64,000 nt of DNA from Thermoprotei archaeon (GTDB lineage: Archaea > Thermoproteota > Thermoprotei_A > Sulfolobales > Ignisphaeraceae): the NCBI GenBank assembly GCA_003661775.1, contig QMWT01000001.1:1199-65198 (forward strand), given 5' to 3'. Both the position numbers and the translations under genes were made by a program. A model generated the notes under the pieces. The model searched no databases, was not told the DNA's origin, and saw only the letters and a program-made list of their open reading frames with translations. Positions 5,919 to 35,729 of the stretch are shown piece by piece (the first letter of the stretch is position 1; each line of letters begins with the position of its first letter).

Positions 5919-7271
5919 CTAGAAAATTAGTCCTACAACGAAATCATTAACATTAGTTCCCGTGTATCCTGTCATTATAGCCAGTCCCACTTTTGAGAAG
6001 AAGGTGTAGCTATCGTTGTTCTCTAGGTACTTGAGGGGGTCTAAGCCCTTCTCCAGCGCTTTTTCAACCGTACTCCCATCTACTAGAGCTCCAGCAGCGG
6101 GACTGACCCCATCCACACCATCGCTGCCCATACACCCGAATACTATGTTCCTATATCCATGGATACCGAGGGCTATAGATAGGCACAGCTCCTGGTTTCT
6201 ACCGCCTACACCGTTACCCTTTACCGTGACAGTGGTTTCGCCACCTGCCAGTAACGCTGCTGGTCGCGATGCTAGATAGCCCCTATCAGCTATGCTCTTA
6301 GCGATGGCGGCGAGAACCTTTCCTACTTCCCGTGCTTCTCCTTCGAGATACGGAGTTAGTATCACTGCGCGATACCCTTTCGCCTCTAGATACTGAGCCA
6401 TCGCCTCCAGAGAGATAGCGTTGCTGGCAACTATGATGTTGCGCACCTTCTTAAGGACTTCGTCTCCTGGTTTAACCGTTTCAGGTACCTCACCTTTAAC
6501 TCCTCTTTCGAGCCACTCCCTGATCCTGGCGGGGATTTTTTTCCAGAGACCATACTTCCTGAGAACCTCAACAGCTTGCTTAAATGTTGTGGCGTCGGGA
6601 GCTGTAGGGCCTGATGCTATTGTATCTAGTCTATCTCCAACAACATCGCTTATTATGAGCGAGTAGACCTTCTTAGCTCTTATTTTCCTCAGCAGCTTGC
6701 CTCCTTTAACAGCCGAGAGGTGTTTTCTAACGGTGTTAAGCTCAACTATATCCGCACCGGCCCTCATGAGGTCCTTAGAGATCTGGGCTATCTCGCTAAG
6801 CTCTATATCGTCCTCGGGCAACTCAAAAAGTGCTGAACCCCCTCCAGAGATCAGCACTAGCACGACGTCATCGGGTTCAACAGCTTCTTCGAGGTATTGC
6901 AATAGTCTGCGCGAAGATTTCAGAGTATTCTCTCCTGGAACGGGGTGATCGCCTTTCACGATCTCTACAGGGCCTATCCTACCTTCATAGAAGGGGGATA
7001 TTGCAACTCCTCCCTGCACAGCATCCCCCACAACATTGATGACCCCCTTAACCATTCCCACAGACGCCTTACCGAAGCCTACTACGTGTAGCCTCCTCAA
7101 CTCGATCTCGTCACCTGTTATCGACAGCCTGGAGTCTCTTCGTTGTAGTACTTTCTCTACTACTTTCTGAGGATCAGCGGCTGCTAGCCCTACTTGTAGA
7201 GCTTCAAGAATGGTTCTATGAAATGGTGTTATCGCAAGTTCGTCGAAGTTCTTTATACGCAAAACTCTCAC
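5919..7271 (-). CDS. glycerate 2-kinase (MOFRL family)
   Basis: N-terminal GFGKASVGM region and the C-terminal MOFRL signature GGETTVTVKGNGVGGRNQE. Confidence 0.8.
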   Translation of the reverse strand: MRVLRIKNFDELAITPFHRTILEALQVGLAAADPQKVVEKVLQRRDSRLSITGDEIELRRLHVVGFGKASVGMVKGVINVVGDAVQGGVAISPFYEGRIGPVEIVKGDHPVPGENTLKSSRRLLQYLEEAVEPDDVVLVLISGGGSALFELPEDDIELSEIAQISKDLMRAGADIVELNTVRKHLSAVKGGKLLRKIRAKKVYSLIISDVVGDRLDTIASGPTAPDATTFKQAVEVLRKYGLWKKIPARIREWLERGVKGEVPETVKPGDEVLKKVRNIIVASNAISLEAMAQYLEAKGYRAVILTPYLEGEAREVGKVLAAIAKSIADRGYLASRPAALLAGGETTVTVKGNGVGGRNQELCLSIALGIHGYRNIVFGCMGSDGVDGVSPAAGALVDGSTVEKALEKGLDPLKYLENNDSYTFFSKVGLAIMTGYTGTNVNDFVVGLIF

Positions 7272-7316
7272 CGAGACACTATTAGCAGAGACTAGCTTTA
7301 TTAGAAGTTCCGTTGG

Positions 7317-8225
7317 TTGAGACTAGCACAGAGCGTTCTTAAATCTCAAGAGCGTAACCTAGGCTACGGTGAGTTTTGTGTGCCGCGTTGCTTGACCAGG
7401 CTTTATTTTGGTCCTGCCGGCGTACCACATGCCGCTAAGAGAAGGTCAACTATAGAGGGTGTTAGAACAGTCAGGGAGCTTGGACTAGACGCTATGGAGA
7501 TCGAATTCGTTAGAGGCGTCAGGATGTCGGAAACCATGGCCCAGAAGGTCAGAGAAGAAGCGCAGAACCTAGGAATCGTACTTACAGTCCACGCACCATA
7601 CTACATCAATCTCAATTCCGACGATCCTAACAAGGTCGAGGCAAGCAAAGAGAGGATCTACCAAAGCGCGAAGATAGGGTTTATCGCAGGTGCATGGAGT
7701 GTCGTGTTCCATCCAGGTTACTACGGAAAGAGAAGCTCTGAAGAAACCTATAGAAGAATAAGAGACGCGGTGAGGGACGTCGTAGAGAGGTTGAAGTCTG
7801 AGGGTATTGATATATGGTTAAGACCCGAGACTATGGGGGGATTGGCGGAGTTCGGAAGTCTGGAGGAAGTTGTGAAGCTGTCCCAAGATCTAGACCTATC
7901 CATCCTGCCGTGCATAGACTTTGCACATATCCATGCGAGAAGCCGAGGAGGCTACAACTCGTATGAAGAGCTCAGACAATTAATGGAGTACATAGAGCGC
8001 GAACTTGGTAAGGATGCCCTGCACTCCATGCATATACACGTAAGCGGTATAAGGTACGGTGATAGAGGCGAAATAGAGCATCTAAATCTAGAAGAATCAG
8101 ATCTTAACTACAAAGCCGTGATAAAGGTGCTCAAAGAATTCAACGTGGCTGGAGTCGTAATATCGGAATCTCCTAATCTAGAGGAAGATGCTATCCTGTT
8201 GAAGAAGTTATACGAGGAGACGTAA
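7317..8225 (+). CDS. nfo: endonuclease IV-like protein (AP endonuclease family 2, TIM barrel)
   Basis: HAPYYINL, VFHPGYYG, ETMGG, IDFAHIHA and HIHVSG follow the metal-ligand pattern of the family. The in-frame TTG at 7392 is a plausible alternative start. Confidence 0.55.
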   Translation: MRLAQSVLKSQERNLGYGEFCVPRCLTRLYFGPAGVPHAAKRRSTIEGVRTVRELGLDAMEIEFVRGVRMSETMAQKVREEAQNLGIVLTVHAPYYINLNSDDPNKVEASKERIYQSAKIGFIAGAWSVVFHPGYYGKRSSEETYRRIRDAVRDVVERLKSEGIDIWLRPETMGGLAEFGSLEEVVKLSQDLDLSILPCIDFAHIHARSRGGYNSYEELRQLMEYIERELGKDALHSMHIHVSGIRYGDRGEIEHLNLEESDLNYKAVIKVLKEFNVAGVVISESPNLEEDAILLKKLYEET

Positions 8226-9070: not shown

Positions 9071-9328
9071 TCACGTAAAGTGATTCAAGTCAGCTGTAGG
9101 AACTCTTGGTTTTCTCTTTGCCAAAGCTTTTAATTTTGAAGCCTCTACCAACTCCTTTACACATGGCTGAGGTGCAGGTAGGGGACTTCTCACTTTTGCA
9201 GAACCCACAACTATAATTGCGACATTGCAAGGGTTTGCGGAAATCGTAGACTCACGCAGCCGAGATGTTCTATACGGAATTCCCACAATATTTTCGGCTT
9301 CTTGGAGTAGAACAGGGGTTATTATCAT
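9071..9328 (-). CDS. hypothetical protein
   Basis: ORF only; no motif recognised. Confidence 0.25.
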   Translation of the reverse strand: MIITPVLLQEAENIVGIPYRTSRLRESTISANPCNVAIIVVGSAKVRSPLPAPQPCVKELVEASKLKALAKRKPRVPTADLNHFT

Positions 9329-9557
9329 AGTTGATATCTAGGAATGTTGATGTTTCTAAGTTTGGTGGAGGCCCTGTAGCATAATTTCAGCGTGTTGTCG
9401 AGAAGTACTGTTGAGAAGCCGTTCTTGGGAATTAGCACATTATCAAACCTTTTGAACTGTTCAAAATCGAAAGCTCTGGAGCTTAAGACTGAGATAGAAA
9501 GCGTACAGCTTCTGCTAGGATGGAATTCATGAAGTTGAGTGTATACATATGGTATTG

Positions 9558-35577: not shown

Positions 35578-35624
35578 GGAGAGAATGGTGGGCCCGCGGG
35601 GATTTGAACCCCGGACCACGGGGA

Positions 35625-35639
35625 CTTTCGCCTGTAGGT
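35625..35639 (-). other. tRNA intron 2 (15 nt, canonical 37/38 position)
   Basis: BHB motif: the outer helix is the anticodon stem, the central helix is UUCG/CGAA, the bulges are GG|A and AG|U, and there is an inner CC/GG helix with a UACA loop. Confidence 0.75.
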
Positions 35640-35644
35640 CCCGA

Positions 35645-35667
35645 GTCGGGCACCGAGTACTCGGTGT
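35645..35667 (-). other. tRNA intron 1 (23 nt, between positions 32 and 33)
   Basis: BHB motif: a 4-bp helix CGGG/CCCG flanked by the 3-nt bulges GU|A and AC|U, with an inner helix CACCG/CGGUG. Confidence 0.7.
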
Positions 35668-35729
35668 ACCCCGCATCCTACCAGGCTAGACGACGGGCCC
35701 AGCCATGCACACTTACTGTTCTGAGCTGC

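Follow-up and report, generated by a model that had tools for sequence, protein, structure and literature searches.

In the window, that is, the whole stretch of 64,000 nucleotides that was analysed, the minus strand from 35700 to 35586 reads as the acceptor stem GGGCCCG/CGGGCCC, a D arm, the T arm CGGGG-UUCAAAU-CCCCG, A73 and an encoded CCA, and 45 nt separate the two strands of the anticodon stem, CGGGG (35673-35669) and CCCCG (35623-35619). This raises the question of which tRNA the gene encodes, how many introns interrupt it and in which order they are removed. The host, which is uncultured, is an archaeon of the Ignisphaera family within the order Desulfurococcales/Sulfolobales (Desulfurococcales according to NCBI), known from a draft assembly of 1.13 Mb that is 55% complete and has 46% G+C. 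We consider that the best explanation overall is a tRNA-Pro(CGG) gene with two introns that would be spliced sequentially, and we give this reading a probability of about 0.85.

The unspliced gene is not recognized by common tools. Default ARAGORN did not report it, and Rfam gave no tRNA match at gathering or permissive thresholds; its one match, a chance one, was mascRNA-like and fell on the T arm and acceptor. In intron mode, ARAGORN forced a single intron of 38 nt and called a tRNA-Phe(AAA) with the loop CGAAAGU. An earlier note on this DNA, made from the letters alone, had claimed that no single-intron model yields U33; indeed, none of the eight possible excisions of one intron yields a loop that has U33. 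When either intron of the two-intron model was removed in silico, ARAGORN called a tRNA-Pro(CGG) carrying the other intron, and when both were removed it returned an intronless tRNA-Pro(CGG) of 77 nt. This program, which the earlier note had named as a check, supports the two-intron model on the spliced sequence while its default run misses the unspliced gene. As the gene is either missed or called tRNA-Phe(AAA), draft genomes of this group seem to lack Pro(CGG) or to carry an impossible Phe tRNA, and the conserved signature GGGGUA-hairpin-CCCGAC-UCGGG-ACC... provides a reliable finder for it. The intron mode of ARAGORN made two further calls in this genome, namely "tRNA-Stop(tta)" at contig C37, c[9297-9396], interrupted by 24 nt, and "tRNA-Phe(gaa)" at contig C44, [5958-7431], whose intron would span 1387 nt. 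Given that the Pro(CGG) gene was itself mis-called as Phe(aaa), these may be mis-called tRNAs with non-canonical or multiple introns.

By fitting bulge-helix-bulge (BHB) motifs by hand and with a script, we recovered both introns that had been proposed, at positions 32/33 and 37/38, as well as the 5-nt exon UCGGG between them (Table 1). In the intron 1 motif, C27-G30 pair with CCCG (35650-35647) to form the central helix, and the bulges are GU↓A and AC↓U, where the arrow marks the cut; these elements agree with the original description, which had made the inner helix one pair short, as it comprises 6 bp (CACCGA/UCGGUG) and not 5. This motif is a relaxed BHB, since besides the 6-bp inner helix it has an outer helix of at most 2 bp (G26-C34, U25-G35) that competes with the D stem. 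The intron 2 motif was reproduced as described, with the central helix U32 U33 C34 G35/CGAA (35630-35627), the bulges GG↓A and AG↓U and the inner helix CC/GG, and it is supported by covariation among orthologues (see below). It is a strict BHB, its outer helix being the 5-bp anticodon stem and its inner helix having 2 bp. Both introns thus fit the BHB rule of two 3-nt bulges flanking a 4-bp helix with cuts after the second bulge nucleotide, intron 2 doing so once intron 1 is removed. Removing both introns restores a canonical cloverleaf with the 7-nt loop UUCGGGU, U33 and a purine at position 37.

Table 1. Features of the tRNA-Pro(CGG) gene (positions in the window) and of the catalytic-type endonuclease genes (positions on their contigs).
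Feature	Position	Strand	Description
tRNA-Pro(CGG) gene	35586..35700	-	115 nt with the encoded CCA (35588-35586); mature product predicted to have 77 nt
TATA-like box CTTTAAAA	35730..35737	-	30-37 nt upstream of G1, read from sequence
Exon 1	35668..35700	-	tRNA positions 1-32, last base U32; U32 contiguous with U33 in intron-2-only and intronless orthologues
Intron 1	35645..35667	-	23 nt, non-canonical 32/33; A + hairpin CACCGA-GUAC-UCGGUG (35666-35651) + CCCG (35650-35647) + AC
Exon 2	35640..35644	-	5 nt, UCGGG; U33, anticodon C34 G35 G36, G37
Intron 2	35625..35639	-	15 nt, canonical 37/38; A + CC-UACA-GG + CGAA (35630-35627) + AG
Exon 3	35586..35624	-	U38, CCCCG (anticodon stem 3' strand), variable loop, T arm, acceptor 3' strand, A73, CCA
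Catalytic-type EndA gene	G000 contig C129:859-1452	+	
Catalytic-type EndA gene	contig C37, locus L113, 1456-2052	-	

The identity of the tRNA, proposed earlier as Pro(CGG), holds on several grounds: ARAGORN calls the spliced sequence Pro(CGG), intronless orthologues have an identical anticodon arm, and the product carries the anticodon CGG, G37, A73 and a body like that of the genome's other proline tRNAs. The doubly spliced sequence is identical to the intronless tRNA-Pro(UGG) of the same genome at 68 of 77 positions in a gap-free comparison, and the gene also aligns with the spliced Pro(GGG). ARAGORN in intron mode found Pro(GGG) and Pro(UGG) in the genome and CGG is otherwise missing, so that the gene, the only one for tRNA-Pro(CGG) found in the draft, fills the place of the third proline isoacceptor. 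The cognate codon is in use, as CCG accounts for 1256 of the 6926 proline codons counted in the long ORFs of the genome. The TATA-like box upstream of the gene is, judged from its sequence, a probable archaeal promoter, many orthologues likewise have A/T boxes upstream, and the gene is presumably expressed in its host.

To place the two introns in a wider frame, we turned to orthologues. A BLAST search with the 115 nt against 60 relatives gave full-length matches in most of the 13 families sampled from the order, the complete 1.9-Mb genome of an Ignisphaera-genus relative (G006) being among those with the two-intron gene, and a pattern scan of public genomes gave 81 further named loci. After parsing, 86 distinct orthologues were available; 52 of them carry both introns, and in the other 34 intron 1 is the sole intron. 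Near-identical genes occur in named metagenome records labelled Ignisphaera, Desulfurococcales or Thermoprotei, and the placement of the host in the Ignisphaera family rests on these labels. The intron-1-only group includes Aeropyrum, Acidilobaceae, Thermodiscus, Hyperthermus and some Pyrodictiaceae. In a class-wide scan, the intron-1 pattern was present in 124 of 351 genomes and in 13 of the 18 families of the class, compared to a single match for the reversed control pattern. Class-wide scanning also revealed, in a Desulfurococcaceae-like family, genes whose sole intron is intron 2 (GGGG-UUCGGG↓ACC...) as well as intronless ones (GGGG-UUCGGGU-CCCCG). A 16-base pattern scan of the genome collection for genes lacking intron 1 returned chance bacterial matches only. 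Families f3 (0/52), f17 and f18 matched neither the intron-1 pattern nor the intron-1-less pattern of the class-wide scans, so their tRNA-Pro(CGG) must differ in the anticodon stem or in gene structure.

Two observations concern the sequence around and within intron 2. Position 38 (window 35624) tracks the intron state, being A in all 34 intron-1-only genes and U in 47 of the 52 two-intron genes; it is U in the intronless Desulfurococcaceae-like genes and A in one intronless Pyrodictiaceae-like gene. In addition, the intron 2 of the Desulfurococcaceae-like genes is longer, 26-30 nt (L046, L064, L071, L083 and L101; genomes G054 and G198-G200), and it has a conserved loop block, CCGCUGAA/CCGCUGGA, with a box-D-like CUGA, which goes beyond what a BHB needs and is absent from the 15-nt intron 2 of the window.

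The relatives with fewer introns allow the junctions to be determined directly. Intronless orthologues in related genera read CGGGG-UUCGGGU-CCCCG, identical to the predicted anticodon arm of the window's gene, and intron-2-only orthologues read CGGGG-UUCGGG↓ACC... with U32 and U33 contiguous. The intronless Pyrodictiaceae-like gene has the loop UUCGGGA, which matches the intron-1-only genes. When the fetched genes were submitted to ARAGORN, all intronless genes and two of the three intron-2-only genes were called tRNA-Pro(CGG); the third (L242) was called tRNA-Leu(caa) with a 13-nt intron, and its sequence parses as a Pro(CGG) orthologue. Because these genes represent natural precise deletions, they fix the junctions at 32/33 and 37/38 and demonstrate the gene structure, and the comparison with orthologous tRNA-Pro genes that the earlier note had suggested thereby confirms both intron positions, the 5-nt exon and the mature loop UUCGGGU, which natural intronless orthologues also have. 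The exon sequence UCGGG itself is invariant in the parsed orthologues, but it was required by the search patterns and the parsing expression.

The same comparison bears on two other readings of the gene. Introns at 31/32 and 38/39 would leave as micro-exon the 7 nt CUCGGGA (35645-35639), that is, the whole anticodon loop. Such a loop would be legal (C32, U33, CGG, G37, A38) and ARAGORN accepts it; nevertheless, all four cuts would be shifted by one base from where a BHB is always cleaved, after the second nucleotide of the bulge, the intronless and intron-2-only orthologues have U32 and not C32, and the intronless genes have U38 in the family where both states occur. Moreover, the intron-2 partner of position 32 is a purine in 50 of 52 genes, which fits U32 and not C32. 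We consider these junctions very improbable, and the natural precise deletions in orthologues lead us to reject them. Even less credible is that the gene encodes a tRNA-Phe(AAA) with one 38-nt intron, as the intron mode of ARAGORN has it, or that it is a decayed, non-functional tRNA pseudogene. The Phe loop CGAAAGU has no U33, and both ideas are opposed by the likeness of the body to tRNA-Pro(UGG), by the missing CGG isoacceptor beside Pro(GGG) and Pro(UGG) and by the use of CCG codons. A pseudogene would not be expected to keep its architecture, with compensatory changes, in more than 120 genomes, as is seen here. Both ideas are thus refuted by the comparative data, and the gene is better read as a tRNA-Pro(CGG) with introns at 32/33 and 37/38.

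How much weight the two motifs can bear was assessed by anchored pair counts in Python. When the G+C-rich sequence of this gene was shuffled, a BHB-like motif whose central helix has 4 bp and whose inner helix has at least 5 bp arose in 36% of cases. Since chance motifs are this common on a single sequence, the statistical weight rests on the comparison of orthologues and not on the presence of a motif. The central helix of intron 1, in which nt 27-30 face the four bases ahead of the terminal AC, is paired 4/4 in 86 of 86 orthologues. The invariance of the central helices is partly built in, as the search patterns contained their bases; the BLAST-collected set and the covariation of the hairpin are free of this bias. 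In the parsed set, the anticodon-stem change G29A/C41U comes together with CCCG to CUCG in intron 1 (L027), and G29A matched by CUCG turns up again in two families, in g44 of f8 and in g23 of f11. This three-way covariation indicates that nt 27-30 have two alternative partners. In the first five pairs of the intron 1 hairpin, 412 of 430 cells are paired, compared to 283 +/- 6 in column shuffles, even though hairpin sequence and length vary freely (introns of 17-44 nt) with two to five standard pair types per position. G31 pairs with the next intron-1 base in 0 of 86 genes, so the central helix stays exactly 4 bp long. Of the 52 distinct two-intron orthologues, 49 have a complete (4/4) central helix of intron 2, and 50 place an A or G opposite U32. 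In the unspliced RNA, U33 is preceded by the C at the end of intron 1, and this C could form a pair with the base opposite U32 in only 8 of the 52. Conservation and covariation of both motifs are thereby demonstrated.

We then considered the order in which the introns are removed. The central helix of intron 2 had been said to be complete only after U32 and U33 are joined, and this is correct, since the helix straddles the insertion site of intron 1. The accompanying claim that the two motifs are mutually exclusive stands in part. Both cleavable forms indeed cannot coexist, because a BHB intron at 32/33 must use nt 27-30 and one at 37/38 must use nt 32-35 and the anticodon stem, 5 nt apart; however, this is the geometry of any two introns so close to each other and not a special evolved property. 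The arrangement is asymmetric, as intron 1 interrupts the central helix of intron 2, whereas intron 2 lies outside the central helix and the inner hairpin of intron 1. In agreement with this, a blind BHB scan of the precursor ranked the site 33/56 best, with a 4-bp central and a 6-bp inner helix, and left the intron 2 site with three of four central pairs and without an outer helix. Once intron 1 was removed, the scan gave the site 38/53 with 4/4 central pairs and a 7-bp outer stack.

Folding was modelled with ViennaRNA (nearest-neighbour model) with the cloverleaf core enforced. In the precursor, the predicted intron-1 conformer makes up 12% of the ensemble at 37 C and 8% at 85 C, the anticodon-stem conformer 0.5% and 7.5%, and the partial intron-2 motif about 1e-6 and 3e-4, respectively. 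Once intron 1 is gone, the canonical BHB core is predicted to account for 66% at 37 C and 10% at 85 C. As the intron-1 and anticodon-stem conformers are about equal at 85 C, the energetic argument for an order is weaker at growth temperature. Nevertheless, because of the geometry, of the folding fractions and of the fact that ligation in between would keep the 5-nt exon attached, it is likely that intron 1 is removed first. According to sequence and folding, this gene thus combines two BHB introns of which the second can form its motif only after the first is removed, which is the arrangement of nested splicing.

Splicing in this order would proceed as follows. In the primary transcript, of about 115 nt plus a short leader, C27-G30 would pair with CCCG near the 3' end of intron 1 to form the relaxed BHB, with its 4-bp central helix, two 3-nt bulges and 6-bp inner hairpin and almost no outer helix. 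A splicing endonuclease of the crenarchaeal type, with a catalytic subunit bearing the Crenarchaea-specific loop, would cut after U32 and before U33, and RtcB would ligate the ends left by the excision. Only then would the anticodon stem form and U32-U33-C34-G35 pair with CGAA, giving rise to the canonical 37/38 BHB, which would be cut and ligated in a second round to yield the 77-nt tRNA with the anticodon loop UUCGGGU. Because the steps would be sequential, the 5-nt exon would always be attached to a larger exon and never released.

The same two introns might instead be removed without obligatory order. In that case a relaxed motif would let the broad-specificity endonuclease excise intron 2 already from the primary transcript, and both intermediates would arise. 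Crenarchaeal (alpha-beta)2 endonucleases do cleave relaxed HBh'/BHL motifs (PMC3241643; PMC4090602), at 85 C the folding model gives the anticodon-stem and intron-1 conformers nearly equal shares, and a 3-bp remnant of the intron-2 central helix can form in the precursor together with the 2-bp inner helix. However, in this precursor arrangement a three-way junction with a mismatch of C and A takes the place of the U32-A pair by the 3' bulge of intron 2, an outer helix is lacking, and the partial motif is about 5 kcal/mol worse, with a minute share of the ensemble at either temperature. Furthermore, cutting both introns at once would free the 5-nt exon without means to hold it for ligation. We therefore regard the absence of an obligatory order as unlikely and favour the removal of intron 1 before intron 2, although some cutting of intron 2 first may take place, as crenarchaeal endonucleases accept relaxed motifs.

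The genome carries genes for candidate enzymes of such a pathway. It has an RtcB gene and two catalytic-type EndA genes (Table 1), whose products of 197 and 198 aa are 41% identical to each other and have the alpha subunits of A. pernix and Sulfolobus as best PDB matches. Both have the Tyr/His/Lys region and a lysine that aligns with K44 of the Crenarchaea-specific loop of the A. pernix endonuclease, a residue tied by mutagenesis to broad substrate specificity (PMC3241643). The structural beta subunit was not found in the 55%-complete genome, and each of five relatives has one strong alpha match and one weak beta-like match. The second EndA copy may be a paralogue or may stand in for beta; alternatively, its contig may be a contaminant.

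Judged from the distribution among orthologues, the 32/33 intron appears to be the older and more widespread of the two, which is mildly interesting. One family holds all four states, that is, both introns, either alone and none. We tentatively suggest, at somewhat less than even odds, that the 32/33 intron is an ancient, vertically inherited feature of the class while the canonical 37/38 intron was repeatedly lost or gained. Non-canonical tRNA introns are usually viewed as young and mobile. An ancient 32/33 intron would contradict this view, and the gene would then offer a natural series on which to test how a 5-nt exon is protected by a two-step relay of RNA refolding. In any case, the two-intron, one-intron and intronless alleles form a clean natural experiment that fixes splice junctions without RNA data, and they could be used to study ordered splicing, the substrate limits of crenarchaeal endonucleases and the age of a non-canonical intron.

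Multiple-intron crenarchaeal pre-tRNAs were reportedly described by Sugahara (2007) and Tocchini-Valentini (2009). The closest known case of the 32/33 intron is in Aeropyrum. A study of cDNAs of A. pernix K1, from spliced and unspliced RNA, describes an intron of tRNA-Pro(CGG) that lies at a non-conventional site in the anticodon loop and has a BHB where it is spliced (PMC4307357). This is experimental support, from a relative, for the orthologous intron 1. We found the homologous 44-nt intron at 32/33 in complete genomes of the genus (GGGG-U↓A...CCCGAC↓UCGGG-A-CCCCG) and in Aeropyrum MAGs, and matched it to the K1 study by genus and description. The Aeropyrum gene is orthologous to that of the window and shares the 32/33 position, the flanks and the relaxed BHB that uses nt 27-30; it differs in having a single 44-nt intron and A38. 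In the window's gene, the 32/33 intron is 23 nt long, a second, canonical intron is present, and position 38 is U.

As regards two introns in one gene, published accounts of nested crenarchaeal pre-tRNAs include the double intron of T. pendens pre-tRNA-Pro, which was removed in vitro, and the three-intron tRNAs of Pyrobaculum, and they state that the last motif of nested introns forms only after the others are removed (PMC3241643; PMC3978253; PMC4090602). The nested pre-tRNAs of Thermofilum pendens and Pyrobaculum resemble the window's gene in their multiple BHB introns, in a last motif that forms after removal of the others and in the repeated rounds of (alpha-beta)2 endonuclease and RtcB action that this would require. 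In contrast to these Thermoproteales tRNAs, the window's gene belongs to the Desulfurococcales and has both introns within the 7-nt anticodon loop, leaving a 5-nt exon; its non-canonical intron appears old and widely conserved rather than recently spread. The program tRNAscan-SE 2.0 removes introns iteratively, as some lie too close together for a second BHB to form before the first is removed (PMC8450103). This is the logic needed for the window's gene, but as a prediction routine it is not evidence for the order in the cell. We expect the exact pair 32/33 and 37/38 to be already present in tRNA databases, because genomes of cultured Desulfurococcales carry the two-intron gene. The two-intron tRNA-Pro(CGG) is therefore a well-conserved example of a feature known in this archaeal group rather than a new mechanism.
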